A stretch of DNA of 64,000 nucleotides from positions 1,056,001 through 1,120,000 of the forward strand of contig CBDFJR010000002.1 of the NCBI GenBank assembly GCA_965248535.1, read 5' to 3'. Source of the DNA: Phormidesmis sp. Lineage in GTDB: Bacteria > Cyanobacteriota > Cyanobacteriia > Leptolyngbyales > Leptolyngbyaceae. Below the pieces are notes generated by a model. The model was not told the DNA's origin. It did not search any database and was given only the letters and a program-made list of their open reading frames with translations. How positions within the stretch are numbered: position 1 is the stretch's first letter; each line of letters begins with the position of its first letter. Below are positions 47,711-64,000 of the stretch, piece after piece. The position numbers and the translations under genes were made by a program.

Positions 47711-47872
47711 AAGAATATTCTACGGTTGCTTGTTTGCAAAAACGCTTCACCTATCGGTCGATTGGTGAATCAGAGCGCAGCGATCGCGCCACTGTCCATC
47801 AACTATCAAGCCCCTGTATTATCTATTTGGCGAGCTACATAATTAGTGGGACGGGGTTTTTTAAAAGACACG

Positions 47873-50623
47873 ATGAAGATCCTTTTAGTAGACGATGACC
47901 AGCAGTTTTCTGATCAACTCAAAGCTTCACTAACCGCTTGCTACTATACCGTAGACACCGCGATCGATGGGCAAGAAGGCTGGAATCTCGTCGAAACCTT
48001 TGACTATGACTTGATTTTGCTAGACATCTTGTTGCCAAAACTGGATGGAATTAGTTTTTGCCGACGGCTGCGAGCCAAGGGCAGCCAAACGTTAGTTCTA
48101 CTTCTAACAGCTAGAAGCACCAGTCATGACAAGATTCTGGGGCTTGATGCCGGAGCCGACGACTATGTGGTTAAACCGATAGGGTTTCAAGAACTAGAAG
48201 CTCGCATTCGCGCCCTGCTGCGTCGAAAGACTACCGCAACCGCTCCCAGACTAGAATGGGGCAATTTAAGACTTGATTCTAAAAGTGGTGAGGTCACCTA
48301 TAATCATGCGTCTTTGAGTCTAACTCGCAAAGAGTATGGGCTATTAGAGTTATTTTTGCGAAACCCCGATCGCATCTTTAGCCACAGTGCGATTCTGACC
48401 CAGCTATGGTCGTTTGAGAGTGACATCCCTGGAGAAGAGACGGTCAGAGCACACATCAAACGGCTCAGGCAGAAACTCAAAGGACTAGGAGCCTCTGATT
48501 TGATCGAAACGGTCTATGGGCTGGGCTATCGGTTGAATTCCGATTCCCACAAAAATCCGACTGCTAGCGAGTCTCAACCTAAAAGCAGCCAAAACACCCG
48601 CCCGATCGTCAAACCTGACCTAGCCGTGTCTCAACCGCTAGCGGTGAATGACTGGGAAACCACTAAGCGCAACCTGATTGAACGAACGGCAATTTTAGAG
48701 CAGGCGACCCGATCGCTGTCTCAAAATTTGCTAACAGATGATGTGCGACAGAGAGCACAACAAGAATGCCACAAGCTGATTGGCTCTTTAGGGCTGTTAG
48801 GTTTGCCAGCAGGCTCAGAACTTGTTCAACAAATTCAGCCGCAGCTACAGCGACAACTGTTGCTTAAACCAAAACAATTACAGTGGCTCTGCGAACAGGT
48901 AGCTACGTTACAAAACCTGATTAAAAACGCTGCTGACCCCAAAGATTCTAACGTTAATCAACATGAACTAGAGACACAACCACGATCGCTTCTCATCAGT
49001 GATGATCAAGAATTTGGAAGTCTTCTGGTTGCAGAAGCAACAACACGGGGACTACACCTCTTAGTAATGGCTAATATGCAGTTAGCAAAAGATGCCATTC
49101 AGCGAGTTTGCCCTGATGTGTTGCTGTTAGATTTGTCTACACCTGAGCGCTATAGAGCAGGATTGCTCCTATTAGAAGGCCTCTCTCAAGAAACGCCTTC
49201 GCTGCCCGTGATTGTCTTGATGGACAGTGCTCAGGTAACTGACCGCTTGACGATCGCTCGTCATAACGGCCGGGGAATTTTTCCAAAATCGATCGCCCCT
49301 GCTCGGATTTTAGAGGTTTTGGCTCAAACTCTAGAGCCACCTAAAAACAGCGAAGCCAAAATTCTAATCGTGGATGACGATCCAATTTTTCTACGATTGC
49401 TAAAAGCCATATTAAAGCCTTGGGGCTTACAAGTCACCACGCTCAAAAATCCCTTAGAGTTTTGGGACGAGTTGCAATCTATTAGACCCGACTTGTTAAT
49501 ATTAGACGTGCAAATGCCAGATGTAGACGGCATTGAGTTGTGTCGAATGCTTCGCAACGATTCTGACTGGGCGTGGCTCCCGGTTTTGTTTCTCACAGGG
49601 CACAAAGATACCGACACCATTCAACAGCTTTTTGCAGCGGGCGCAGATGACTATATTAGCAAACCTGTTGTTCCACCAGAGATCATCACCCGCATTCTAA
49701 ACCGTTTAGAACGGACGCGATTGCTTCGTAATCAAGCCGAAGTAGATGGGCTGACTCGCCTGTCAAATCGATCGCGGGCCACCCAAGACATCATCAATTT
49801 CCTGCACTTATCAAAGCAATATCAACAGCCTTTTTGTCTGGCAGTTTTAGAACTAGATAATCTAAAGCAGGTCAATCATCAATATGACCATAGGCTGGGT
49901 GATCAAATTCTATATCAAACGGCTCGTCTCTTGCGGCAAGCCTTCCGCAGTCAAGATGTGGTGTCGCGCTGGGATGGAGCAGAGTTTGTCATTGGCATGT
50001 ATGGCATCACTCGCCGAGACGGGGTGGAGTGGCTATCTGAGGTGCTAGAGTCTCTGCGTCAAGTAGAATTTTTAAGCTCTGATGGGGGGGTGACGCAGGC
50101 AAGTTTTAGCGTCGGAGTGTCTCAATATCCAGAAGATGGAACAGGATTGCAGACGCTCTATCAAACCACCAGAGTTGCTTTAGAGCAGGCAAAAGGTGTG
50201 GGCGGCGATCGGGTGTTGCCCGTTACCTGGCAGTCGTCGCCTACTCAACTTGATGTGATCTTGCTGCATCAAGATACGCCCTTTGCTCAGTCTCTCTTGA
50301 AGGCGCTAACAACGCGGGGCTACCATAGCCACTGGCTGCAAGGTGGAATGGCGGTAGACGCAATCTTAAAAGATGGTCAGAACAGTCTCTTTTCCCAGAG
50401 TCGTGCGATTCTAATTGAGGCAAACTTGCCGGGCTTAAGCGGACTGGAACTGATCAAACGGTTGAGAAAGCGTAACATCAATCAGCGATCGCGGTTAATC
50501 CTGCTGTCTACTCAACCGAGCGAAGCCGAAGCAGCAATGAATTTAGGATGTTTTGATTACGTCAATCTACCCTGTAGCTTAACCACCCTCATTGCTCACT
50601 TGCGTCGAGCTATAGAGGCATAA
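47873..50623 (+). CDS. multidomain response regulator REC-wHTH-HPt-REC-REC-degenerate GGDEF-pseudoREC (RcaC-like)
   Basis: LLDILLP, IETVYGLGY, CHKLIGSLG, ILDVQMP, RSQD..SRWDGAEF, LIEANLP. Confidence 0.9.
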   Translation: MKILLVDDDQQFSDQLKASLTACYYTVDTAIDGQEGWNLVETFDYDLILLDILLPKLDGISFCRRLRAKGSQTLVLLLTARSTSHDKILGLDAGADDYVVKPIGFQELEARIRALLRRKTTATAPRLEWGNLRLDSKSGEVTYNHASLSLTRKEYGLLELFLRNPDRIFSHSAILTQLWSFESDIPGEETVRAHIKRLRQKLKGLGASDLIETVYGLGYRLNSDSHKNPTASESQPKSSQNTRPIVKPDLAVSQPLAVNDWETTKRNLIERTAILEQATRSLSQNLLTDDVRQRAQQECHKLIGSLGLLGLPAGSELVQQIQPQLQRQLLLKPKQLQWLCEQVATLQNLIKNAADPKDSNVNQHELETQPRSLLISDDQEFGSLLVAEATTRGLHLLVMANMQLAKDAIQRVCPDVLLLDLSTPERYRAGLLLLEGLSQETPSLPVIVLMDSAQVTDRLTIARHNGRGIFPKSIAPARILEVLAQTLEPPKNSEAKILIVDDDPIFLRLLKAILKPWGLQVTTLKNPLEFWDELQSIRPDLLILDVQMPDVDGIELCRMLRNDSDWAWLPVLFLTGHKDTDTIQQLFAAGADDYISKPVVPPEIITRILNRLERTRLLRNQAEVDGLTRLSNRSRATQDIINFLHLSKQYQQPFCLAVLELDNLKQVNHQYDHRLGDQILYQTARLLRQAFRSQDVVSRWDGAEFVIGMYGITRRDGVEWLSEVLESLRQVEFLSSDGGVTQASFSVGVSQYPEDGTGLQTLYQTTRVALEQAKGVGGDRVLPVTWQSSPTQLDVILLHQDTPFAQSLLKALTTRGYHSHWLQGGMAVDAILKDGQNSLFSQSRAILIEANLPGLSGLELIKRLRKRNINQRSRLILLSTQPSEAEAAMNLGCFDYVNLPCSLTTLIAHLRRAIEA

Positions 50624-50644
50624 AATTTTGGCTTCAGTCTCAGA

Positions 50645-51760
50645 TCAGGATTTCTGCTTTCGAGCCGTGATATCTCTAACAACTCCTTCATAAAACAGCA
50701 AGTCTCCCCGCGCATCATGCACCTTGCGGACTGTCTCAGCGATCCAGATAACGCTGCCATCTTTGCGATAGACCTGCGAATCAAAATCAGAGACGGTTTC
50801 CTGCTGTTCTAAACAGGCAACAAACTCCTCTCGTCGCTGCGGTTGCACATAAAGCTGTTGAGCAATGTTATTAATCGTTTGGATCAAATCGTCAGGAGAC
50901 GCATATCCATAAATTCGAGCTAAGGCTGGGTTTGCATTCAAATACATGCCATCACGAGTGGTTTGAAAGATGCCGTCGATAGCGTTCTCAAAGATGCTGT
51001 GATAGTTTGCTTCTGCGTTTCTACAGTCCTGAATACTTTGCTCTAACCTAATATTTTGCTCTTCTAATCTTTTTTGCAGCATCCGAATATTTAGCTGATG
51101 CTCAACTCGTGCTAGCACCTCTTCCATTTGAAACGGTTTAGGAATGTAGTCCGTTCCCCCCACTTCAAAAGCTTTTACTTTGTCGAGCGAGTTATTGAGG
51201 GTGCTGATAAAAATGACTGGAATCTCACGTGTTAAAGTGTTGGCTTTAAGACGACCACAGACTTGATAGCCATCTAGACCTGGCATCATGATGTCGAGCA
51301 AAATCAGGTCGGGTTTTAGTTCGATCGCGGTAGGCAAGGCCGCGATGCTACTGGTTGCATGACCCACTTCATAGCCGTGCTTAGACAATGCAGCCGAAAG
51401 AAGACGCACATTTAGGCAAGCATCATCCACAATCAAGATCGTGCCACGATGAGTAGATTCGCGCAGCTTAAACCCTAATAGCCAAAAGATAGTTTGTTCG
51501 GCATTTCTCAGTTCTTGACGATGTTTAGCTCCCTGGGTGGTTAAAGCTTGATGAAGAACTGCCAAATGCTCTAGCCGCTCGATCGCTGCATTCACTTTCT
51601 GGTCTTCTAAATACAAGCTTTCGATCACTGCATTTAAATCGCTCAAAGAATCTGCCTTGAGTCCAGCTCCTGTGGCAATTACAGAGCTTATTTGATCAAG
51701 GTTTTGGTGCAACAGTTTTCGGATTTGATAGCTTGTAGCCAGCGAAAGTTGTTTCCGCAT
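50645..51760 (-). CDS. REC-PAS/PAC protein without output domain
   Basis: LLDIMMPGLDG, DYIPKPF, IFENAIDGIFQ, RKDGSVIWI, RDIT then stop. Confidence 0.88.
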   Translation of the reverse strand: MRKQLSLATSYQIRKLLHQNLDQISSVIATGAGLKADSLSDLNAVIESLYLEDQKVNAAIERLEHLAVLHQALTTQGAKHRQELRNAEQTIFWLLGFKLRESTHRGTILIVDDACLNVRLLSAALSKHGYEVGHATSSIAALPTAIELKPDLILLDIMMPGLDGYQVCGRLKANTLTREIPVIFISTLNNSLDKVKAFEVGGTDYIPKPFQMEEVLARVEHQLNIRMLQKRLEEQNIRLEQSIQDCRNAEANYHSIFENAIDGIFQTTRDGMYLNANPALARIYGYASPDDLIQTINNIAQQLYVQPQRREEFVACLEQQETVSDFDSQVYRKDGSVIWIAETVRKVHDARGDLLFYEGVVRDITARKQKS

Positions 51761-51821
51761 AAGCTGAATAAGTATTAATTTAAAGTCTCAATTGAGTGTT
51801 CCCGTGAGCAAAATAAACGCA

Positions 51822-52238
51822 TTAAATTCTGTCAGAGCTTAAGATTTGCTGAACCGCGGACTTCAGGTGGTCATATTCCAATTTGAGCAATAAAAACTTC
51901 TCGTTACAGGTTTCGGTAGATTCTAGCTGCACACTGATTTCTAGATCTTGACAAGCGCGAGAAAATCGAATCGCACCAAAAGCAGAACTACTGAACTTTA
52001 AACTGCTTGCAAGTTTCCGAGCTTCATCCACTTCACCAAGGTCGATCGCGTGCCCAATAGCCTGTAAAAGACTAGAAAATTCGGCAAGATAATGATCTGT
52101 AAATTCAGACAAAACTTTTGTCGAGTTTTCACCGCTAACGTGTTTCAAAAACCTCAAGACATTGGGAACCAAGATGAGTAAATCTAAGTGCGGAGGGCTG
52201 ACTACAGGTTTAGAATTGCCGTCTAAAGAATCCAACAT
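51822..52238 (-). CDS. Hpt-like protein lacking the phospho-His
   Basis: ARKLASSLKFSSSAFGA..FS..C..LE versus canonical AHxLKGSS. Confidence 0.75.
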   Translation of the reverse strand: MLDSLDGNSKPVVSPPHLDLLILVPNVLRFLKHVSGENSTKVLSEFTDHYLAEFSSLLQAIGHAIDLGEVDEARKLASSLKFSSSAFGAIRFSRACQDLEISVQLESTETCNEKFLLLKLEYDHLKSAVQQILSSDRI

Positions 52239-52286: not shown

Positions 52287-55200
52287 TTAATCAACTTTTG
52301 CACGGAATCGGAAGAAGCCGTAAGAGGATGCCGGGACGCTATTCACCGACTGGACGGCTCCAACTTGCAGATGCACTGCACCACGACTGTTGTTAGTGCC
52401 AGTGCAACTGCTGGGAAACGTCGTTGGGAAAAAGCCGCTTCCTGCACCAGAACCTGGGCCATCAGTGATCGGAGTTGTTGTGCCATTAAAGTTAAGCTGA
52501 ATTGAGCCACTCACAAAGGTTTGCTTGTTAGGCACAAAGTCACAAAGGTCAACCCCGCCTGCCGTCATTGCACCATCTGACAGAAAGTAAATCGTGTATT
52601 CAACTTCATCACTAGGAGCAGGTGCACCGGGAGTCGGGGTGGGCACTTGAGCCGTATTGATTGCGCCTAAAAGATAGCTGCTGCTGCCACCAGGCCAATT
52701 TACCCCTGGGTTGTCGTTGTTGTCGGTGGCTAAATTGTTATACCCGGCGATCGCTGTGACTGTTCCGCTACCATTCTTTTTGATGCCAGTAATCCGTTTA
52801 ACTAACCGTAATCGTGGGCCGATGTTAGTCAGGGTGGGATCACCCACAGCAGGGGTGCCGGGATCGTTACTGAGCAGATTGGCGAAGCCTGCACTAGTAA
52901 TCATTGCTTGGTTGGAAAGCTGTGTCGTGCCGCTAGGAGTCACAGGATCTTTAATGGTAACCCGGAACTTAACCGTGGTCGTGTTGTTCGCGGCAGCAGT
53001 TCCTAGAGTCCCTCCGGCTGTGCCGTTGGCACCTGTTCCTAGCCGGAACACAACCTGCGAAGCGCTCGCCTCAGCCTGATCGTCTGCACTCGCATCTGTT
53101 TTGGTACCAGCATTGGCTCCGGCGGAGATCTGCAATGAGCCTGGAAGATAAATAGTGTTGGTAGGAATAGGATCGGTCAGTACCACGCTATTAACTGAAG
53201 TCGTAGTGCTCGTGTTTTTAACAACTAGGGTGTACTCTAGAATATCTCCAGGGGTTGCCACCTGACTAGCAAGCGGAGTGGCTCCACCCGATCCGTCACT
53301 ATCCACCGCGACCACTGCTGTTTTATCGACTTGCAGAGGGCTAGCGGGCGCGATCGTCACGTCTTCTGCCTTGTTAGCTGCCACGGTGCCATCGTAGCTG
53401 GAGGTCAATGCGGCAGCGTTCACATTGACCGTTGTCACATTTGCGCTAGCATTGGTATATTTGGCATCGGCTGTCGCACTGTTGTTATAGGTTGCAGAAG
53501 CGGTGCCGCTCGCGATTGTGACCGTAAAGGTAACAGAAACACTTCCGCCAGGTGGAATCGTAAACCCTGACCAAGAGGGCTTAGAAGTAGTTCCTGCGGT
53601 TGTCACAGAAGCGGGCCCTGTGGCCCCCCCTGAATAGACTGGGGTGACTGTACCTGAACTATTGGTGAACCCAGTGGGCAATCCTGCGTCAGCAATGACG
53701 ACATTCTGAGCGGTGGGCCGTTTTGCCCCGATCGGGTTACTAGCGGTAATCGTGTAAGTCGCTGTCCCTGGGGCAGCCATTGGGCCGGGAGTTGACGTTG
53801 ATTTAGTTGCAGCGATCGTGCATCCTGCTCCTGAAATGCTAGTCACTGCGTCTGTAGCTGTCGAGTTAACCGGGCCCGCTACTCCATTGCCTGCGGTCGC
53901 ACCACCAAAATTCGTCGAGTCATTCAGCGTCGTCCCTGATTGCCCCCCATTCAGAACAGTTGTTGCACCGGGACTGTAGTAAACTACCCCCCCAGCACCG
54001 CCGCCGCCGGGACCGTGGGGAGCGCCACCGCCAGTGTTCGTCCCCCCCTTGCCGCCATTGGCACTAACGGTAAGTCCGGCAGTGCTACCCGTTTGTGAAA
54101 TAACCAGAACACTTCCGCCCGCGCCGCCGCCGCCACTGCCATCGTTATCAGGAATCAACGCTGGGGTGGCACCATTGGCACTAATAGTCCCTGCGGTCGC
54201 GATCGTGCCTGTCCGCAGCAAGACGATACCACCCCCAGGCGCACCGCTACTGGCTAACCCGTTACCTGGGGTGCCAGTTCCGTTATTCGTATTACCTGCG
54301 CCTCCACCACCCCCCAGAACTAGGCGGCTAGCAGACGCTGGAAAAGGGGCACCACCATCGCCACCGAGTGGTAGCGCACTATTCCAGGTTCTACCACCTT
54401 TACCGCCCAGTCCTCCATTACCGCCGCCCGCGCCGCCCGCGTTTTCGTCGTTAGCAGAGGGATTTCCATCCACAGCCCCGCCCCCTGCGTTTCCAGGTGC
54501 GCCGCGGCCATAGCTGCCGTTTGGGTAACCTTCTGTTGCATTGGTGATTAATGTGTTTGCGGTAGGATCGAACAAATATTTGGGCGTACCTGCCGTTCCT
54601 TCACCCTTGGAACCGTTGTTGGCACGAGTAGAAACAGAAACGACATCTGCATTACTTCCAGCACCCCCTCCTAACTGAACACCACCACCGCCTCGAAAGC
54701 CTTGACCATTGACGTTGATTTGTCCCCCGCTGAAGGAGATCGCACCTGCAACGTCCATTGCGACTACCCCTCCCGTGGTTCCATCCCAGGGGATCGCTGA
54801 TATGGTGCCGCTAACCGTCAAATTGCCATACTGCGGCACCCGAATCACCTGAAACCGCCTTTGTCCTTGACTACTGCCCCCTGTATTGTTAGCAGTAACG
54901 TAGCTGTTAACCAGAGGTGAACTAATATTGATAGTACCACCACTGGCTGCAACAGCGTTAGTAGCCACCACATACTCAAAGTTCCCAGCAGTAAAATTAG
55001 AGGCGAGGTTGCCATTGACGGTGCCGTTAGCAGCGTAGGGAGCCGCAGTTGATCCATTGTTAGTAGAACTGCCATCCCCGTAGGCGGCAGTGTTCGTCGC
55101 GTCAATGTCTGCTCCCTGCATTTGGATAACTAGCAGCAAGTCGCCGGGTTTGATTGAGGTTGAAAATCCTTTTGCAGTGCCTACAGCAATGCTGGTCGTC

Positions 55201-55466
55201 CCGGCAGCAGCACTGGTTCCGGTTGCACTGGGAAAATAGGTATTGACCTGCCCTGTAGGTGCTGTATAGTTGCCGTCTTGACCTGGGACGGCACAAATTG
55301 CATTGCCACTGCCATCTACTTTATCGGCGCTAGCAGGCGAAGTAAAAAGCCAGAGATTTTGAGACGACAGTAACACAGTAGCAGCCAACAGTGGACTGAT
55401 TCTGCGAATTGACCGCGACCAGAATCGTGAATGTTTAAGGTGAAGAGCAGTTAAATTACGTTTCAT
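52287..55466 (-). CDS. large secreted Gly-rich adhesin-like protein with three DUF11-type domains (putative tip subunit)
   Basis: signal peptide ending SPASA; Gly-rich N-region; ATKS..IADAGLP..YNNSA, VDKT..LTDPIP..LSNQA, LVKR..LCDFVP..FRAKVD*. Confidence 0.85.
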   Translation of the reverse strand: MKRNLTALHLKHSRFWSRSIRRISPLLAATVLLSSQNLWLFTSPASADKVDGSGNAICAVPGQDGNYTAPTGQVNTYFPSATGTSAAAGTTSIAVGTAKGFSTSIKPGDLLLVIQMQGADIDATNTAAYGDGSSTNNGSTAAPYAANGTVNGNLASNFTAGNFEYVVATNAVAASGGTINISSPLVNSYVTANNTGGSSQGQRRFQVIRVPQYGNLTVSGTISAIPWDGTTGGVVAMDVAGAISFSGGQINVNGQGFRGGGGVQLGGGAGSNADVVSVSTRANNGSKGEGTAGTPKYLFDPTANTLITNATEGYPNGSYGRGAPGNAGGGAVDGNPSANDENAGGAGGGNGGLGGKGGRTWNSALPLGGDGGAPFPASASRLVLGGGGGAGNTNNGTGTPGNGLASSGAPGGGIVLLRTGTIATAGTISANGATPALIPDNDGSGGGGAGGSVLVISQTGSTAGLTVSANGGKGGTNTGGGAPHGPGGGGAGGVVYYSPGATTVLNGGQSGTTLNDSTNFGGATAGNGVAGPVNSTATDAVTSISGAGCTIAATKSTSTPGPMAAPGTATYTITASNPIGAKRPTAQNVVIADAGLPTGFTNSSGTVTPVYSGGATGPASVTTAGTTSKPSWSGFTIPPGGSVSVTFTVTIASGTASATYNNSATADAKYTNASANVTTVNVNAAALTSSYDGTVAANKAEDVTIAPASPLQVDKTAVVAVDSDGSGGATPLASQVATPGDILEYTLVVKNTSTTTSVNSVVLTDPIPTNTIYLPGSLQISAGANAGTKTDASADDQAEASASQVVFRLGTGANGTAGGTLGTAAANNTTTVKFRVTIKDPVTPSGTTQLSNQAMITSAGFANLLSNDPGTPAVGDPTLTNIGPRLRLVKRITGIKKNGSGTVTAIAGYNNLATDNNDNPGVNWPGGSSSYLLGAINTAQVPTPTPGAPAPSDEVEYTIYFLSDGAMTAGGVDLCDFVPNKQTFVSGSIQLNFNGTTTPITDGPGSGAGSGFFPTTFPSSCTGTNNSRGAVHLQVGAVQSVNSVPASSYGFFRFRAKVD

Positions 55467-58400
55467 GGAGTTACACCTTCAGCAACGGGGGAACTTGAGG
55501 GGGCGATCGTGACAGCAGCAGATTCTGGTTTAGATTTGCGATCGGAGGAGGTCGGTTTTTGTAGCCCAAACCCGCTGAATAGCTCATTGAGTTTGATGGT
55601 TAGACCTAAGTAAGGCCCGCCTGCCGATCGAGAGCCGTCGAAGTCACGATCGTTGGCTCGACCAAAGCTATAACCTGCTGCTAGTCGAAGATTGGGGGTG
55701 AGATAATAGCCCGCTTCGACCACAAATCCGGTTTCGCGATATCCAGCACTGGGTTGAGCAATCCACCGAGCTTCTCCGACAATATCCCAGCTATAGCCAA
55801 AGCGATAAGTGGCGCGGAGTTGGGCTAAAGACACCGTGCTGGTGCCGACTAAATCACTAGAGAGCGTCGTCGAGCTGTGGCGCAGCGCATATTTGCCGTA
55901 AAATTCCCAGCGCCAATTAGGAGCATAGATGCCTTCGATCGCTAGCGTGTGGTCTTCTGAACCTGTGCCACTGCCGAACAGAATCGTATCAGGAATCGTT
56001 GAGGGGTTCTTGCGATATTCATAGCGAAACAGGGCATTGAAGCGATCGTCGTTGGGATCTCGGTAGGCAAGTCCGACTTTGAGACTGGAGGTATCACCCA
56101 ACCCTGTCAGTGTTTGGTTAGCAGCGTTAGCCTGCTGATAGCGCACCAGCGCTGTGAGCGAGGGTGAAATTTTGCCCGTTGCGGCAGCCGAAATTACCGT
56201 GTTGCTGCCGCTTGATGAACTGCGGTGTTCATATCGGGCGCTTGCTTGGAAGTCTTTGCTTCCCGTATATTCCAGCCCAACACTGTAGCTATCGCCGCCC
56301 TGCAAACCGAGAGAAGAAGCACTCTGTCCGACTGCAAAGGGTTGAGCAAATTGAACCCCCGCCCCGGTGCGGCCAAAGAACCCGCCGAACAGATGTTCAT
56401 AAGCTAGATCCATTCTCAGTCCGGGGGAGATTGTCCAACCCTGGTTAACCCCAATCGCGCCTTGAGTTGTCCAGCTATCGGCTCCACCCACGATGCCATA
56501 ACGGGCGTGTAGAGTCGTGTCTGTCCCAAATTTGTATTCTCCGCGCAGATCTAAATTGGTAATAGACTGTCCAGCTAGCTGCCCACGCGTATAAAACTGT
56601 TGACTCAAACCGAGGTTGACTCCAGGCATAATTGCCCAATCTAGTCCTAGCCCGGTGCGATCGCTATAGACAGAATCAACACTTGAAGAAAGCGTCGTTT
56701 CATTCTGCGCTAGAAAGGTGAGGCTATTGCTCAGAGGCACCGTGAAGCGCGATCTCAATTGATTGGAGGAACCGCTTGAATCGGGTGATAGTCGATCTTG
56801 ACGATCGCGATGGAGTAAATCGACGTTCAGGTCAGCCTTTCCAATTCGCTGCTGCACCCCGACCGCGATCGTGGTCAGCGAGTTATCGACCCGACTACCC
56901 GGAATGGCTTCAGTCCGAGGAGCAAAGAGGTCTCGTAACGTGTCAATCTGTCGAGGTGCCGTGCCGACGTTCTTTTCGCGGTCATATTGCACTCTCAGTT
57001 TGGTGCTGTCGGAAAGGATGCCTACGACCTCTGCCCCATAGCGCGTTTGTCCAGGCACAAAACTAACGGTGGCATCATTAGCAAATCCTGTATCGGTCTT
57101 GCGATAATAGCCTCGTGCCAGAATACCTGTTGTGATCTCGGCGTTGGCTTCTAACCGATAGGCAGAGCCGCTTACCGAGCCGAGAATATCCGATCGATTG
57201 TTAGAACGAGCATATTCAGCAACAATGCTGCCTTTGCCAAACGAGTAGAGAGCATCCGCACCGTACAGTTCAAAGTTTCGCGTTCCCTGATTTTCTTTGA
57301 GATAGGTGGCACCAATCCAGCTTTCTGTGCCTGGGGTGTCAGACAGATGATAGAGCGCTCGACCTGCATAGATATTGCTCTTGCTTCCCTGCTGAGTCTC
57401 GTATTGATAGGTCGTAACAATTCGACGAACTAACACCTGCCCAGTGAAATCGACATCCGTTCGCAAAATCGGTTGCCGGAAAAGGATTGTGCCCCGATCG
57501 TAATCAATCTCATAATCAGTACCGCGATTTAACTGCTTGCGCTCCAAAACAGTTCCAGGGCGGTTTAATTCCTCAACTTCTAAGAAGACATTTTCACTGC
57601 CGCCAATCACTAACCGTCGCGAGAGGAAGTAATAGCCGCTCGTGCCATCTGGCGCTAGCGTATCGCGCTGAAACCCCTGCACATTGTTGCCATAAAAGCC
57701 ACTGAGTTGGAGATTACCAACATTGTAGTTAGCCTTGAACCCATGAAGTTGCCGAGTCGTTGCCGTAAACTGCTGAGATCGGGTGGCAAATTCTTTAGTG
57801 TCATAGTCACCCCACATGAAATAGTCGATGCCATTCGAGCTAGGCGATGTGCGCTCTAGTTTGAGGAAAACGCTATCCGTCGAGGGAGTCAGAACCTCTG
57901 TTTTAGAACTATCGCCATAGACTGGATAGTTTTGATCGCAGAATTGCTGTTCACGAAACAGTCGCGAGGTGCCATCACAGGTTTGATTGAGAGCATGATC
58001 ACTGTTGTAGGCACCTGTTACAAGCCAATCGCCCACTTTTCCCGTGGCAAACACTGCGCCGTGCGTCGCTAGCCCGTAATTATTTTTGCCATTAGGCGGC
58101 AAAAAGTCTCGAAAGCTGCGATAGAAGTCTGTGCCACCCTTACCCAGGCGAAAATCGATCGAACCTGTCACCAGCGAAGAACGCAAATCGGTTTCAAACT
58201 GGACTTGAGTAAACGCATCTAAATCCTCAGCCTTTGCCTGAATTCGCACTGTTTGAGCTTGGATGCCAGATCGTAGCGTTGCCTTAAATTCGCCCTGGCT
58301 AGCTTTGACTTGATAGCCTGGCTGATCAGGGTTGAAGTCCGGTTCGACAAATTCGCCCGCCGTGGGCTTGAGGGTCACGATCGTATCGCGATTTGAGCGG

Positions 58401-59017
58401 TTGCCGTTAGCATCCAACAACTCACCCAAAACCGTCACTGTCGATCGACCATCAGCCCGAACTCGCGTTTCAGCCGTGCGAAGGGTGATTTGCTTTGCCG
58501 TTCCGCGGACTTGTACCTGCACCGATGCCGTTTGGGTCACTTGACCGTTGACGACGATTTGAGCCACGATCGTGTTGTCGCCATCCTGAAGCGGAACACC
58601 ATACCAGGTCTGAGTCGTTTGCTTCTTAGTTTTATCTTTTTCAGTCCGTCCGACGAGAGAAACACTCACCGATTTACCGTTTACCTGTAGCTCCACCTGA
58701 CTATCTAGAGGAAACCGAAGCACCACCGTTGCCGCCGGGACATCAACCACCGCTTTAGGCGTGGGTGAGACGATCGTGATACCTGCCGATGGATTTGTTG
58801 GTAAAGGTGTTACTGCCGGTTGGGAGACAGGTTTTGATTCTGGTTTAACAGTCGGTTGCCTTGGTGAAACTGATTGCACGATCGGAGTTGTTTCCGTTTC
58901 TGTGATCGCTGCCATCACGCCTCTGATCGGCATCAGCAATGCAAAACTGATACTTTCAGCAATCAGTCCTAAACCCAGTAGACAAGCAGCTATGGAATTT
59001 CGAGATTTCATGTTCAT
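55463..59017 (-). CDS. large outer-membrane beta-barrel protein with N-terminal Ig-like domains (putative usher/anchor)
   Basis: signal peptide; Ig-like ADGRSTV region; YPVYGDSS, DYEIDYDRG; long run of amphipathic beta strands ending YLGLTIKL. Confidence 0.85.
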   Translation of the reverse strand: MNMKSRNSIAACLLGLGLIAESISFALLMPIRGVMAAITETETTPIVQSVSPRQPTVKPESKPVSQPAVTPLPTNPSAGITIVSPTPKAVVDVPAATVVLRFPLDSQVELQVNGKSVSVSLVGRTEKDKTKKQTTQTWYGVPLQDGDNTIVAQIVVNGQVTQTASVQVQVRGTAKQITLRTAETRVRADGRSTVTVLGELLDANGNRSNRDTIVTLKPTAGEFVEPDFNPDQPGYQVKASQGEFKATLRSGIQAQTVRIQAKAEDLDAFTQVQFETDLRSSLVTGSIDFRLGKGGTDFYRSFRDFLPPNGKNNYGLATHGAVFATGKVGDWLVTGAYNSDHALNQTCDGTSRLFREQQFCDQNYPVYGDSSKTEVLTPSTDSVFLKLERTSPSSNGIDYFMWGDYDTKEFATRSQQFTATTRQLHGFKANYNVGNLQLSGFYGNNVQGFQRDTLAPDGTSGYYFLSRRLVIGGSENVFLEVEELNRPGTVLERKQLNRGTDYEIDYDRGTILFRQPILRTDVDFTGQVLVRRIVTTYQYETQQGSKSNIYAGRALYHLSDTPGTESWIGATYLKENQGTRNFELYGADALYSFGKGSIVAEYARSNNRSDILGSVSGSAYRLEANAEITTGILARGYYRKTDTGFANDATVSFVPGQTRYGAEVVGILSDSTKLRVQYDREKNVGTAPRQIDTLRDLFAPRTEAIPGSRVDNSLTTIAVGVQQRIGKADLNVDLLHRDRQDRLSPDSSGSSNQLRSRFTVPLSNSLTFLAQNETTLSSSVDSVYSDRTGLGLDWAIMPGVNLGLSQQFYTRGQLAGQSITNLDLRGEYKFGTDTTLHARYGIVGGADSWTTQGAIGVNQGWTISPGLRMDLAYEHLFGGFFGRTGAGVQFAQPFAVGQSASSLGLQGGDSYSVGLEYTGSKDFQASARYEHRSSSSGSNTVISAAATGKISPSLTALVRYQQANAANQTLTGLGDTSSLKVGLAYRDPNDDRFNALFRYEYRKNPSTIPDTILFGSGTGSEDHTLAIEGIYAPNWRWEFYGKYALRHSSTTLSSDLVGTSTVSLAQLRATYRFGYSWDIVGEARWIAQPSAGYRETGFVVEAGYYLTPNLRLAAGYSFGRANDRDFDGSRSAGGPYLGLTIKLNELFSGFGLQKPTSSDRKSKPESAAVTIAPSSSPVAEGVTP

Positions 59018-60465
59018 GGTTTGCCTGCTTCTGAAACGGCGGGCGTGACAGCAAAATTCATTCGCACCAGTCCATTGGGTTCGAGGTGCACCAGTCGAGA
59101 TTGGCTATTGCGTTCTTTGAAATAGAGATTGGGGGCAAAGGTGTAGCCGGGAACACTGCTGAGATCGAGGACTCCAGTTCGACTGCCTGGCAGGACATTG
59201 GCGATCGAGAACAGCCCATTTGGATCGGTGGTGATGCGAGTGCCATCATCTAAAAGCACGACTGCATTTGGAATTCCAGGTTCTCCAGGCTGCTGTTCCC
59301 CATCGAAATTTTTGTCGTCAAATACGCGACCGATGATGGTTCCACAATCCGATACAATGCCGGGACGAATCCGTAGCCGATATTTAGACGGCCCATCTCG
59401 AAGAATGGCGTTAGTATCGATGCGATGAACGCTAACGCTAGCCAGATTTTCACCCGTGCCCCTCACCGAATCAGGACTGAGTTGTACAGCATAAGCAACG
59501 TTTAAGACTCCATCAGGAGGAATGCTGCCGTCAAACCTAAACGTGATGGCAGAACCACTATGAGTGGTTGCGATCGCGACCACATTTCCTCCTAACTCAC
59601 CACGCACGCTCTTAGGCAAAAAGCTGAACCCTAAAGGCATTACATCCGCAATCTCAATCTGATTAGCCGCAACCGAGTTGAGATTTCGCACTGAGAGCCG
59701 ATAAATCACTGTATCGCCAGGCTCGGCAGAAGCCCGATCGGCCGTTTTGGTAATTTGAACAGGTTGAGCCGGGCCTACACAAATCGGCTGATCGAGCAAA
59801 CTCAGTGCAGAGAGCACTAATCCACTTCCGGCAGCATCATTAATAGCAACCGTTGTTGTGAAGGAAGCTGGGTCGGCATCTAAACCGATTCCTCGCCCGT
59901 CTAACGCAGTTGCAGTGTAGGAAATTGTTTTAGCAACATCATCGCGTGCAGTAATGACAAGCCGAATTTGTCGTTGGCTATAGCGTCTGGCACTCGCGGG
60001 CGGGTTCACAATGAGAATGTATCGCCTGCCAACGTCAATCTGCCCTGCGCTACGGTTCAAGAAAAAGTTATAGCCACCCTTAGGTTCGTCATTTGCCAAA
60101 AAGAAGGGATTGCTGTTTTGCACATTGGGAGACACACCCGTAAAACTGGTGCCAGCCCCAGTTCTTGGCAGAGGAAGCAGAGCCAGTGGTGTATCATCTT
60201 GGCTAGCTTGATAGAGAGCGACGCTGAATCCTGCATAGTCAGGCAAGACTTCTCCACCGCAGCCACGAATGCGCCCAAACGGGTCAACGATCTCTTGCTT
60301 CAGTGCATTTGTAATGCTGTCAAACGTATTTTTCTCAGCATCTTCAAATGTGTAGGAAGCCGTGTTAAGAATCGCGCTTTTTGCTGTAGCGGCTGAAGGC
60401 TGAAATGAAATGCTGGCAAGAAGCAACGCCGCCAACAAGCGACATCGTTTGCGGTGAGAAATCAT
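59014..60465 (-). CDS. secreted DUF11 + SdrD-B-like protein (putative base adaptor)
   Basis: signal peptide, ILNTASYTF, VQITKTADR..PGDTVIY..IADVMPLG..ENLA, GRVFDDKNFDGEQQPGEPGIP. Confidence 0.88.
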   Translation of the reverse strand: MISHRKRCRLLAALLLASISFQPSAATAKSAILNTASYTFEDAEKNTFDSITNALKQEIVDPFGRIRGCGGEVLPDYAGFSVALYQASQDDTPLALLPLPRTGAGTSFTGVSPNVQNSNPFFLANDEPKGGYNFFLNRSAGQIDVGRRYILIVNPPASARRYSQRQIRLVITARDDVAKTISYTATALDGRGIGLDADPASFTTTVAINDAAGSGLVLSALSLLDQPICVGPAQPVQITKTADRASAEPGDTVIYRLSVRNLNSVAANQIEIADVMPLGFSFLPKSVRGELGGNVVAIATTHSGSAITFRFDGSIPPDGVLNVAYAVQLSPDSVRGTGENLASVSVHRIDTNAILRDGPSKYRLRIRPGIVSDCGTIIGRVFDDKNFDGEQQPGEPGIPNAVVLLDDGTRITTDPNGLFSIANVLPGSRTGVLDLSSVPGYTFAPNLYFKERNSQSRLVHLEPNGLVRMNFAVTPAVSEAGKP

Positions 60466-60616: not shown

Positions 60617-61180
60617 TTAACGGATTTTGACTTGGTAAGCAGCACTCACACTTGCTTCAGGTTGCAGCGCTTGGCTGGTTTCCCACCGCACATGAGTGTA
60701 AGCCGCCGCCGGAGCGGGACGTTCTTCAACTTTGCCGTCTGGAAGCGTCACTTTCACGGTCGGGTGCGCCACAAACGTTTTGCCTTGGTCAAGACTGTAG
60801 GTGACAGTGATTCCCTGAGCGATCGTGGCAGAATCCAGTTGATAGCTCGTTCCTTGAGGAATGGGTTGAGTAATCGCAACGTTTTTCGCGTCACGACTGC
60901 CTTCGTTTTTACCCGTCACCGTGAACCGAATCACATCCCCTTGTTTTGCCTTGACTTTGCCGTCGATCGCTTGCCAGTTAGTTACCTCTTTACCCTGCTG
61001 GTTTTTTGTTACCACCTGCTGATCTGCCACCAGGTAGAGATTGACTTTGGGCTGACGCAGAACATTTTGAGCAATCGAAGACCCCGCGTTGAAAATCTGA
61101 GCGATCGCAGGTGAACCGTTGATCGGCAACGCTGAAACAACTAGTGCTGCGCTGACACTTAATAACCAATGTTTTTTCAT
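60617..61180 (-). CDS. small secreted single DUF11-like domain protein (putative chaperone/cap)
   Basis: MKKHWLL signal; QGDVIRFTV..KN.G..A.NVAITQPIPQGT.Y; YTHVRW; ends YQVKIR. Confidence 0.88.
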   Translation of the reverse strand: MKKHWLLSVSAALVVSALPINGSPAIAQIFNAGSSIAQNVLRQPKVNLYLVADQQVVTKNQQGKEVTNWQAIDGKVKAKQGDVIRFTVTGKNEGSRDAKNVAITQPIPQGTSYQLDSATIAQGITVTYSLDQGKTFVAHPTVKVTLPDGKVEERPAPAAAYTHVRWETSQALQPEASVSAAYQVKIR

Positions 61181-61267: not shown

Positions 61268-63811
61268 TTACTTGATCTTTCGCTGGAAGATGAACGTGCC
61301 ACCCGCAGAGCCAGGAGCAACCGATGTGACGGTGTCTTTATACTCCTGGATGTCAGTTGGAGTGCCGCTGGTTGTCACCGTGATAGCTCCACCCGCGTCA
61401 GTTGCAGAACCTGTCGCTGTGCCAGGGAACTTCGGATCAAGCGTTGGGCCAAACCAAGTGTTAGTACCCGTGCTGCCGTTCTCAGTAATCACCAAGCTGT
61501 TAGCAGGCAAGGTGACATTGTTAGTTCCACCGCTGGTTGAGATGTTTTTGTAGGTGATGCGATACTCAATCACCCTGCCAGGCGAGGCAGCCGCGCTCAG
61601 ATCAGCTTGTACCTTGGTGAAGGTGCCAGCAGCCCCTGTGACTGGCGTGACCCCATCGACTTCCAGGATTCGGGCTTCTTTATCCAACGTCAGATAGTTG
61701 GTGTAGAGGCGATCGATCGTAGTGTTGCTCGGATCACCCGTTGGGCTGCCATCCCCATTGACATCAACAAACGCGGTTACGGGAACTGGGAACCCTTGGA
61801 ACTGAGGTGCCGCAGGAAGATCAACTGTCACCTGATAATCTGCTGTCGCTCCGGCTGCGATCGTCAGTTTGACCGGGCTGGTGGCAGTTGGCGTAACTCC
61901 ACCCGTTCCAGCAGTGCCTGAGACGAAAGCAAAGCCGCCTGCTGAGGTGTAGTTATAAGTTGCACTGCCCGACACTGGGTTAGTGATCGTCACTTTTGTG
62001 TTGTCTAGCAGGGCAGTTGTCGTTGTTGGAGGAGTGGGTAATAGCGAGATGACCTGAGACCCACCGCTGGTGTTTTGAGCAGTGTTGTTAAAGGTGAACG
62101 GAGGTGTCTGAGCATCGGTCAACGGGGTTGTAGGCGATAGACCCACAGGAGTCACGATCGACTTGTTGGTGTAGTCATCATTGGTATCAGTTGGGCCCAC
62201 GGCAGCAGGCTTTGTCTGTGGCCCGTTTAGAGGAGTCGCCGCGATCGTATACACGGTGTCTTCACCACCTGCGGTCTTAGTACCTCCACCATCTACACCT
62301 GTGTTGGTGTTGGTAGTGTTCGTCGGATCAGTTCCCGTTCCTGGGTCAGTTCCATCATTTCCAGGGTTAGCCACCCCGTCGCTGATGCCACCAGCGTTTG
62401 TAGCTGTGCCGCCTGATCCTGGATCGGGGTTGTTTCCAGCTAAACCGTCGTTGGCGGTTTGGTCACCCGATTCATCATAGACAATCTGGGTTGAGGTTCC
62501 TGGTGTAATCGTGCCGGGTTGAGACTGACCAAAGACTTGAGCCAAGTTTGCAACTTGTCCGCCTCCAAACCCACTAACGGGGGTGAGGTCGAATTGGAAG
62601 CCAGAAACCGTTGTGCCAGTGCCCGCTGAACCTTTAGAAATTCCAGCAGAAGTGGTGTCTTTGATAAAACCAATTCGAGTGATTGCCGGGCCTGAGGTAG
62701 GACGAGTGGTGCTCCACGCTGCGCCCAAAGCACTGGTGGTCAGAGGTGTTTGAGAATAAACTACTTGCCAGCCAGCAGGAGCGGTGATGGTGTTGGTCGC
62801 GCCAAACTGTAAGCCAACCGGAACCGCGTCACTGACTAAGACATAAGGGGTAGCGGTGCTGCTGTTGACGTTCAGGCTGGTGCCATAGAGATCCGATGTG
62901 ACAAACCCAGCAGGAGGGCTTGAGGGATTTTCAACTCGCAGCGCTAGCTTATAGGTCAGAATGTCATCCGTTAAGATGTTGGGTGTAGAGTTGTTGCTAT
63001 AGCTGCTCACCGCTTTGAGCACGGCTGCAAACGATTGCAGTCTAGCAGCAACCACGATCGGGGTGCTGGTTGCCATTGCTTCTCGTACACCGTTGCTGGG
63101 CGCGGTTGCATTGGTTTCGCCACCGACTCCGTTTCCGTTGTCCACTGTGTAGACATCATTTGCATTGCTGCCACTTACCGCCCGATCGAGGTTTTGTCCA
63201 TCAACAGGGGTAGTGTTTCCTAGCGACACTTTTAGGGTGCTGGTTGCGGTTGCACTGGCTAAGACTTTAATAGGCACCCGAATGGTAACTGTTCCGGTGG
63301 TGCCTGTGCCTGGATTGGCAACCAATGACCCTGAGTTTGCGCCTGTTGTCCCTAGCAAGTTGCCAGTGGTGTCTCCAGCGTTGGGCACGTTGACCGCCGT
63401 TCCTAGGGTCGTGCCATTGACTGCGACAATTTGAATCTGCCCATTTTGCGAGAAGGCAGTTGTGTTAGAAAGAGTAGCCGTGCCTGGGATAAAGAATTGA
63501 GTCGGATCGTTGCCCGTGTTGGTGATAACGAAGTCTACAAATAAGGTGTCGCCTGCGTTGGGGTTGGAAACACTAGGAGTTTGAGCGGTCAGCGCTACGC
63601 CTGCCACTTCTAAAACGTCGATCGTGACTTCATTAGAGGTAGTGGTGTAGTTAGTGGTGCCATCGGTAAAGGTGCCAGTCGCCGTGTTTTTAATCGAGGT
63701 TCCGGCAGCAGTGCCGTTTGCCCAGACAGGAGAGACGAGTTGGAAAGCGCTTCCGATCGCAAGGGTCGCTGCTAGCAGGTGTCGCAAATGAGAGTGTGAA
63801 CAAGTTTTCAT
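61268..63811 (-). CDS. secreted Thr/Gly-rich beta-repeat protein with DUF11-type domains (putative major fibre subunit)
   Basis: signal ending SPVWA; GTAAGTSIKNTATGTF; ITNTGND; C-terminal LTLDKEA..PGRVIEYRITYKN..LVITENG..FIFQRKIK*. Confidence 0.88.
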   Translation of the reverse strand: MKTCSHSHLRHLLAATLAIGSAFQLVSPVWANGTAAGTSIKNTATGTFTDGTTNYTTTSNEVTIDVLEVAGVALTAQTPSVSNPNAGDTLFVDFVITNTGNDPTQFFIPGTATLSNTTAFSQNGQIQIVAVNGTTLGTAVNVPNAGDTTGNLLGTTGANSGSLVANPGTGTTGTVTIRVPIKVLASATATSTLKVSLGNTTPVDGQNLDRAVSGSNANDVYTVDNGNGVGGETNATAPSNGVREAMATSTPIVVAARLQSFAAVLKAVSSYSNNSTPNILTDDILTYKLALRVENPSSPPAGFVTSDLYGTSLNVNSSTATPYVLVSDAVPVGLQFGATNTITAPAGWQVVYSQTPLTTSALGAAWSTTRPTSGPAITRIGFIKDTTSAGISKGSAGTGTTVSGFQFDLTPVSGFGGGQVANLAQVFGQSQPGTITPGTSTQIVYDESGDQTANDGLAGNNPDPGSGGTATNAGGISDGVANPGNDGTDPGTGTDPTNTTNTNTGVDGGGTKTAGGEDTVYTIAATPLNGPQTKPAAVGPTDTNDDYTNKSIVTPVGLSPTTPLTDAQTPPFTFNNTAQNTSGGSQVISLLPTPPTTTTALLDNTKVTITNPVSGSATYNYTSAGGFAFVSGTAGTGGVTPTATSPVKLTIAAGATADYQVTVDLPAAPQFQGFPVPVTAFVDVNGDGSPTGDPSNTTIDRLYTNYLTLDKEARILEVDGVTPVTGAAGTFTKVQADLSAAASPGRVIEYRITYKNISTSGGTNNVTLPANSLVITENGSTGTNTWFGPTLDPKFPGTATGSATDAGGAITVTTSGTPTDIQEYKDTVTSVAPGSAGGTFIFQRKIK

Positions 63812-64000
63812 GTCGGGTAGCAAGAGTATTGACAATCAAAAGAGTGAATTTGTAATCAGTGATGAGATTGCTGCTTTAGTCGTCGTGCAATGAGAGTTAA
63901 GAATCTAATGGAAGATAGAGCGCTTCGAGAGAACAGATCCAGACGCAATAAAGGAGGGTCAATAGAACAAGCTAGTCTTGTTAAAATCACAGGCTCCTAA

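Follow-up and report, generated by a model that had tools for sequence, protein, structure and literature searches.

A DUF11 module without the isopeptide triad in a putative cyanobacterial fibre operon: a candidate natural dead catcher

We describe a gene for a small protein of 187 amino acids (aa) in a 64,000-nucleotide stretch of Phormidesmis sp. DNA (GenBank assembly GCA_965248535.1, contig CBDFJR010000002.1, positions 1,056,001 to 1,120,000; hereafter the window, whose coordinates are used throughout), where it lies in an operon that would encode a surface fibre based on a DUF11/CLIPPER domain in two parts. The mature 855-aa shaft and 483-aa base subunits would begin with one part, which we call the tag (Asn strand and last strand). 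The other part, the catcher (the rest of the domain, with its Lys and Asp or Glu), would sit at the C-terminus of the shaft and of a 1059-aa tip protein. The 187-aa protein resembles a catcher and lacks the residues of the isopeptide reaction. We put at about 40% the probability that it is a dead catcher, which would bind the shaft tag non-covalently and act as a chaperone or regulator rather than as a cap. According to the accessible text of PMC12617251, DUF11 has been renamed CLIPPER, for a domain with an intramolecular Lys-Asn isopeptide bond and a catalytic Asp (structure 9IFR), and some members lack this triad.

The 187-aa protein is a conserved member of the DUF11/CLIPPER family

An open reading frame at 60617..61180, pointed out in a preliminary description of this DNA, was recovered there on the minus strand. 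The features of the gene and its product are as follows.

60617..61180, minus strand: coding sequence of the small DUF11 protein (187 aa, P0001), ATG at 61180, stop codon at 60617-60619 included.
61100..61180, minus strand: putative Sec signal peptide, residues 1-27 (MKKH, a hydrophobic core, then AIA before Q), read from the sequence alone.
61046..61087, minus strand: conserved N-terminal peptide AGSSIAQNVLRQPK, residues 32-45, disordered in the AlphaFold2 (AF2) model.
60620..61045, minus strand: DUF11/CLIPPER-type body, residues 46-187, a presumed CnaA-like Ig-type beta-sandwich with ten strands predicted by AF2.
61031..61033, minus strand: codon of Leu50, the candidate for the Lys position in the preliminary description, with Ala52 and Trp69 (60974-60976) as rivals.
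60866..60868, minus strand: codon of Gln105, at the place of the catalytic Asp/Glu according to profile columns and alignments.

The protein matched Pfam DUF11 (PF01345) over residues 76-144 (E 9.8e-08, 32.8 bits vs a cut-off of 24.6) and TIGR01451 (E 5.4e-10, 39.1 bits vs a cut-off of 24). Both scores exceed the curated cut-offs, and the protein is a member of the DUF11/CLIPPER family. Furthermore, hhalign of its family against 150 canonical DUF11 repeat units gave a probability of 98.5%. Pairwise BLASTP scores against the operon neighbours were weak (E 0.015 for the 483-aa, 0.33 for the 1059-aa and 8 for the 855-aa protein), so that the term DUF11 paralogue, used for this protein before, is carried by the profiles and not by pairwise similarity.

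A word-indexed search returned 159 homologues of similar length at E<=1e-3; among the matches listed (120 of the 159), lengths ranged from 159 to 220 aa and all named organisms were cyanobacteria. An exhaustive search added many further small full-length relatives, along with giant DUF11 repeat proteins that matched the core only. A scan of species genomes yielded 262 relatives, the nearest from Phormidesmis at 89% identity. Among the best 80 of these 262, the sole title from outside the cyanobacteria was a Tatlockia sp. metagenome-assembled genome, whose contig is short (6.4 kb) and has the same gene order as elsewhere; its Tatlockia assignment is therefore probably a binning error. The gene is real and conserved, and its family is widespread in filamentous and colonial cyanobacteria, whose surface fibres are poorly known. 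Other genomes carry two to four copies in separate operons, and in one locus (L020, G011:C113) a single shaft gene has a copy of the small gene on either side, the two copies being diverged (41% and 45% identical to the query).

The protein contains no Cys and is therefore not a lipoprotein. Conservation was counted over 181 full-length members out of 185 matches, the set to which all counts for this family refer. In the N-terminal peptide, Ile36 was found in 105 members, Ala37 in 143, Gln38 in 141 and Asn39 in 120 (gap rows included), and the pattern AG(S/T)xIAQNV..QP is kept across the family though predicted to be disordered. The idea that this peptide is a tag whose Asn has become Gln (a dead donor) was dropped, as only five columns are alike, a likeness that 8% of shuffles reach (p=0.08), and genuine tags have a much longer loop before the next strand.

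The isopeptide triad is missing throughout the family

To place the triad, a family profile built from 23 diverse members was run on 85 giant DUF11 proteins, which gave 867 repeat matches. At the column of Gln105, these canonical repeats have Asp in 768 cases, Glu in 43, a gap in 28, Asn in 12, Ser in 6, Ala in 4, Gln in 2 and Thr in 2. The members of the small family have Gln in 174 (Glu 2, Val 2, Asp 1, Pro 1, Gly 1). The contrast of 174/181 Gln with 768/867 Asp indicates that the Asp-to-Gln change is real, specific and conserved. The preliminary description had proposed this change from an alignment with the motif LTDPIPTN of the 483-aa protein; that motif belongs to the 1059-aa protein, and the 483-aa protein reads IEIADVMPLG.

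The register around the Lys position is uncertain because a hairpin of about 20 residues is inserted after the first strand. The earlier register places Lys at Leu50 (Leu in 179 members, Met in 2), one hhalign run places it near Trp69 (Trp in 179), and global alignment to the C-terminal module of the 855-aa protein places it at Ala52. Lys occurs at any single position between residues 42 and 82 in at most 132 members. Hence the proposed loss of Lys stands, while its exact replacement may be Leu50, Ala52 or Trp69.

No conserved Lys, acid or Asn was seen at any candidate triad position among the 181 members, and by its sequence the 187-aa protein does not carry the Lys-Asp-Asn triad of the CLIPPER intramolecular isopeptide domain. 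The loss of Lys and Asp, whose conservation among homologues had been suggested as a check, holds in 96-99% of the members, so that the homologues have not retained the two residues. The residues that are invariant at or around the triad site are polar (Gln105, Arg85, Asp131, Tyr161, Thr162 and Arg165).

The small gene is tied to the shaft gene

In 78 of 80 loci, the small gene is the next one downstream of the shaft gene, and it is followed by the 483-aa gene in 70 of these. Among 14 loci from relatives, 13 have the full gene order and the remaining one consists of the shaft gene, the small gene and a tip-like gene only; the small gene is directly behind the shaft gene in all 14. Furthermore, in 41 related genomes we found the small gene in 19, the shaft gene in 20 and the barrel family in 31. 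The sets of genomes with the small gene and with the shaft gene are identical except for one genome, in which the shaft is cut at a contig end. Conversely, three paralogous barrel loci that encode a tag-bearing base and a catcher-bearing adhesin have neither the shaft nor the small gene (3/3). Gene order, co-occurrence and the shaft-less loci together tie the small protein to the sole subunit that has both tag and catcher.

One of these shorter paralogous barrel systems is in the genome of the window, outside the window itself (L107, G000:C2:1203000-1222900; the others are L108 and L109). Its genes are for a tag-bearing DUF11/SdrD_B protein (335 aa), a barrel (1220 aa), a beta-helix/Big_6/OmpA protein (707 aa) and an adhesin with SdrD_B repeats (1238 aa) whose C-terminus is a catcher with Lys and Asp.

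A DUF11 domain appears to be split between the proteins of the operon

The operon consists of five co-oriented, partly overlapping genes in the order 855-aa (DUF7925), 187-aa, 483-aa, 1184-aa and 1059-aa, with no strong terminator-like site seen between them. The neighbours of the small gene and their relevant parts are as follows.

61268..63835, minus strand: 855-aa shaft subunit (DUF7925; Pfam E 3.3e-56); the database version P0270 begins at Met9.
63611..63718, minus strand: shaft tag, formed by an orphan Asn strand and a last strand immediately after the signal peptide (NGTAAGTSIKNTATGTF...SNEVTIDV).
61271..61705, minus strand: shaft live catcher, a DUF11 half-domain at the C-terminus that has Lys and Glu and terminates past the 'F.F.R.I' strand.
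59014..60465, minus strand: 483-aa protein with an N-terminal tag (60334-60384), a complete internal DUF11 domain (Lys240/Asp274/Asn340) and an SdrD_B-like C-terminus; likely the base or terminator subunit.
55463..59017, minus strand: predicted 1184-aa outer-membrane barrel; an Ig-like domain is at its N-terminus, and the gene start overlaps the stop codon of the 483-aa gene.
52287..55466, minus strand: 1059-aa tip-type adhesin with an AgmC_N-like region and DUF11 repeats, from profile matches.
52290-52817, minus strand: live catcher of the 1059-aa protein, its C-terminal 176 residues, with Lys and Asp.

Directly past its leader, the shaft N-terminus has the pattern 'AGT.I.N.A.ATY.D ... TSN.V.V' in 36 of 36 aligned orthologues, which is that of the canonical Asn strand followed by the last strand, and Ile40, Asn42, Ala44, Ser59 and Asn60 are invariant. 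The tag motif was found in 80 of the 81 complete N-termini of the 855-aa family, for which we found 343 homologues at E<=1e-20. In the 483-aa family, the tag keeps Asn34 in 81 of 86 members and Ala in 77, and each of the Lys, Asp and Asn of the complete internal domain is present in all 86. Only three proteins in the genome of the window have a tag behind the leader.

On the catcher side, Lys711 and Glu777 of the shaft are invariant in the 36 orthologues, and the half-domain stops before the Asn strand. The similarity of the tip protein to its counterparts in nine other loci is confined to the last ~180 residues, where Lys is kept in 9/9 loci and the Asp motif in the 8/8 that are not cut off earlier; all six tip catchers that reach a stop codon end directly after the 'F.F.R.I'-type strand. 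Among 88 complete C-termini of the shaft, the final residue (61271-61276, minus strand), directly past the last strand, is Asn in 59 cases and Lys in 16, and this conserved terminal Asn or Lys adjoins the isopeptide site.

Unsplit fusions were found in three genomes (G010, G117 and G153) as open frames of 2110, 2345 and 2711 aa. Here the catcher runs without a stop codon through about nine residues into a tag and then the next domain, which is the layout of canonical repeats. Elsewhere (75 of the 77 matching genomes, 301 having been searched), the catcher is not continued into a tag and mostly ends at a stop codon, and the tag part, where matched, lies about 2 kb upstream within the same gene. 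One fusion has Lys, Glu and Asn intact, another has Lys replaced by Thr, and the third has both Lys replaced by Thr and Glu replaced by Gln ('VVITQDG'), the latter being the substitution of the 187-aa protein ('ITQ') with the tag still attached. A Gln catcher is thus compatible with an occupied groove, and the altered triads suggest that the chemistry can decay where the backbone already joins the two halves. The fusion frames (L110, 3657-9989, minus strand; L111; L112) are flanked by beta-helix-like repeat regions and carry further shaft domains.

At the level of sequence, the tag/catcher system is real, and the donor and acceptor frame of the preliminary description is borne out by the tags (80/81 and 81/86), by the invariant Lys711 and Glu777 and by the three unsplit fusions.

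Evidence for a probable stop of the 187-aa protein before the Asn strand

Two global profile-profile alignments of the 187-aa family end at template columns 102/135 and 87/138, before the 'pi.NtA.v' motif, and match 'VRWE...SVSAAYQVKIR' to the canonical 'gw.ig.l..G.t.tvtf.V.V'. All 181 members have zero residues beyond the profile end, and none of residues 158-187 is a conserved Asn. Furthermore, a global alignment to the shaft catcher is collinear over 126 columns, with Glu777 facing Gln105, Tyr824 facing Tyr161 and the two ends coinciding, at the low probability of 11%. The 187-aa protein and the shaft catcher both have a long insert behind their first strand and an additional hairpin ahead of the final two strands; local alignments between the two cover the B-C strands only. 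We conclude that a stop before the Asn strand, as claimed before, is supported without being proven. Such an end would leave an open groove.

The AF2 model has a mean predicted local distance difference test score (pLDDT) of 75.8, with values below 50 over residues 1-41 and means of 75-94 over ten-residue blocks from residue 41 on; its first strand is 14 residues long. VIA-align superposed residues 41-187 of the model on residues 18-109 of 9ifr_A (Z 7.9, root mean square deviation 2.2 over 91 residues), a score that an AP mu subunit also reaches (Z 9.0). A Foldseek search of the PDB with the model gave no match at E<=0.001, and a profile search of PDB sequences with the 187-aa family gave chance-level matches only. 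Mean-field direct coupling analysis (261 sequences, effective number 155; noisy) returned the pairs 51-83, 52-84, 104-164 and 164-180, which are suggestive.

A dead catcher or a self-contained sandwich

These observations suggest the following model. Through insertion of tags into catchers, the tip, copies of the shaft and the base would be linked head to tail, probably with a Lys-Asn isopeptide bond as a seal, and assembly of the fibre would take place at or via the 1184-aa outer-membrane barrel. The 187-aa protein would be a free-standing, secreted catcher-type module, with Gln for the acid and Leu, Ala or Trp at the Lys position, that binds the tag of the shaft, and perhaps that of the base, without cross-linking it. 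In the periplasm, it would stop the shaft subunit, which has both tag and catcher, from polymerising with itself. At the barrel, the tag would be handed to a live catcher, and formation of the isopeptide bond would make this step irreversible. We infer the tag binding, the periplasmic location and the handover from the sequence comparisons above. A role in preventing premature polymerisation, suggested earlier, fits the genomic tie to the sole potentially self-polymerising subunit.

The wider proposal, in which the protein is a natural dead-catcher chaperone of a covalent split-domain diderm pilus, shelters the tag (the inverse of PapD) and releases it by irreversible isopeptide capture, is more doubtful than dead-catcher binding as such. 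If true, it would provide ordered assembly without an energy source and perhaps length control, and would represent a third logic of pilus assembly in diderms beside chaperone-usher and type V pili. A dead copy of the catcher would then answer the pre-export problem common to all self-polymerising subunits. We found neither this operon nor a dead catcher described in the literature, searched with terms such as DUF11, DUF7925, isopeptide and donor strand.

Several observations weigh against a dead catcher. The profile score of the 187-aa family is nearer to ordinary DUF11 repeats (98.5%) than to the shaft catcher (11-23%) or the tip catcher (89%). The Pfam match and 19 of the 867 local HMMER matches put the canonical W..G..V.V motif at residues 124-146, a register that leaves room for two more strands and makes the domain complete, with no groove to fill; Thr162 would then take the place of Asn, 57 residues past Gln105, as in the canonical spacing from Asp to Asn. 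The claim of a missing Asn strand thus has the global alignments, the fixed end and the lack of a conserved Asn in its favour and this local register against it. AF2 models the monomer with confidence and gives it ten strands, a number that equals or exceeds the count in a whole DUF11 domain. A distant metagenomic relative of 319 aa, P0176, consists of two modules of the small type in tandem, joined by a five-residue linker with no tag between them. Among proteins of 329-2000 aa, no fusion of this type of module with a protein carrying a tag turned up at E<=1e-8, which is weak evidence. Finally, many DUF11 domains simply lack the triad, as reported in the accessible text of PMC12617251. At the Gln105 position, P0176 has Val in its first module and Asp in its second.

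Four of these observations (the register of a complete domain, the confident ten-strand monomer, the tandem relative and the frequency of DUF11 domains without a triad) favour an ordinary, isopeptide-free DUF11 sandwich that is complete in itself and serves the shaft in another accessory role without strand complementation, for instance docking to the periplasmic Ig-like domain of the barrel, polysaccharide binding or service as a spacer. We regard this reading as the leading alternative, somewhat less probable than a dead catcher. It is opposed by the global alignments and the collinearity with the shaft catcher down to an identical end point, and by the zero-length C-terminal tail in 181/181 members, which is unusual for a plain domain. 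Moreover, the residues at the triad site are polar and invariant, unlike a simple hydrophobic fill, and the strict coupling to the sole potentially self-polymerising subunit would be left unexplained.

Less probable still is a structural role as a non-covalent cap or minor fibre subunit, placed on the free distal tag of tipless fibres or acting as an adaptor. Such a protein would share the catcher-like features of a dead catcher, and a terminal, load-free place would tolerate a non-covalent joint. However, most loci with the small gene also encode a tip that has a live catcher (the C-terminal module of the tip was matched in nine), so that the distal tag already has a covalent partner and a cap is less needed, and a mature chain of tip, shaft and base leaves no free tag. 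Of the two roles first offered for this protein, chaperone or cap, the second is therefore the weaker.

Other chemistry or a polymer of its own is very improbable: an ester-type intramolecular link between Thr162 and Gln105, with His163 and Asp131, would draw on Thr162 (171/181), His163 (165/181), Asp131 (171/181) and the nearly invariant Gln105, and on the Thr-Gln ester links with a His base and buried acids described for Ig-like adhesin domains in the accessible text of bioRxiv 10.1101/2025.03.26.645365, but Thr162 and His163 are adjacent on one strand, which puts their side chains on opposite faces, the two buried acids have no obvious counterpart and no family profile of the Thr-Gln ester-bond adhesin domain (Cpe0147 type) matched the protein, while non-covalent self-polymerisation through the 14-residue first strand and the conserved N-terminal peptide meets the insignificant likeness of that peptide to a tag (p=0.08).

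Genes around the operon

The atlas clusters nearest to the 1184-aa protein bear the automatic names 'TonB-dependent receptor' and 'outer membrane protein'. The operon is flanked by signalling genes (47846-52238), which may regulate the fibre. Downstream on the same strand, one gene encodes a 138-aa Hpt protein and another a 371-aa REC-PAS protein; a gene that converges on them from the opposite strand encodes a 925-aa protein with four receiver-domain matches, Trans_reg_C, Hpt and GGDEF.

Comparison with known systems

The only published link to the operon that we found is the DUF7925 entry, which was seeded on a protein of Nostoc PCC 7120 and is read as an intramolecular isopeptide domain in the accessible text of PMC12617251. 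The catcher module of a split DUF11 fibre operon, a domain that ends directly past the 'tvtf.V.V' strand and is encoded together with tag proteins, is a class defined in this analysis and not a published family. The live catchers keep its reactive Lys and Asp or Glu, which in the 187-aa protein are Leu, Ala or Trp and Gln; the 187-aa protein ends as the shaft catcher does in the global alignments, with another register in the local ones, and tag proteins are co-encoded in 78/80 loci.

CLIPPER 9IFR belongs to the same sequence family as the 187-aa protein and may have a similar fold, with the reservation that unrelated sandwiches score as well as the Z of 7.9. It has a Lys715-Asn806 bond with Asp748, whereas the 187-aa protein has Gln for the acid and no conserved Lys or Asn. 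Furthermore, 9IFR is a stalk repeat and the 187-aa protein is free-standing and probably ends before the Asn strand.

Donor-strand complementation with intermolecular isopeptide bonds is known from archaeal thread filaments (PMC9715654) and from BsaA of C. perfringens (bioRxiv 10.1101/2024.11.04.621531). These systems differ from the operon described here in subunit folds and export routes, and the accessible text of the two sources mentions no chemically dead paralogue. The WxL (Elr) pilus of Enterococcus faecalis with its chaperone ElrE shares the operon logic, with a chaperone-pilin core, a base terminator and a tip made of an invariant attachment module and a variable payload, as far as the accessible text of bioRxiv 10.64898/2026.10.17.759780 describes it. 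By the same text, it differs in its WxL and DUF916/DUF3324 folds, its membrane-anchored chaperone, its monoderm host with sortase anchoring and the lack of an isopeptide lock.

The job proposed for the 187-aa protein is like that of PapD/FimC, which block polymerisation in the periplasm and hand subunits over without ATP at an outer-membrane assembly protein. No PapD-type family was among the Pfam and NCBIfam matches of the 187-aa protein at E<=0.1, which bears on membership and not on a chaperone-like way of working. The polarity would be inverse, since PapD donates a strand to the groove of the subunit and the 187-aa protein would accept a strand from it. PapD also has two domains, in contrast to the single domain of about 145 residues here, and the handover, unlike that of PapD, would be driven by covalent capture.

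SpyCatcher E77Q is an engineered half of a split CnaB2 domain in which the catalytic acid is replaced by Gln and which binds SpyTag without forming the isopeptide bond. The behaviour proposed for the 187-aa protein is alike, with the acid replaced by Gln and a tag bound without a bond. SpyCatcher E77Q is engineered, of the CnaB type and Gram-positive in origin, whereas the 187-aa protein is natural, of the DUF11 and probably CnaA-like type, and has lost the Lys as well, its tag binding being our proposal. If the dead-catcher reading is true, the protein would mirror in nature the engineered SpyTag/SpyCatcher(EQ) pair, with a possible use in reversible versus irreversible protein coupling.

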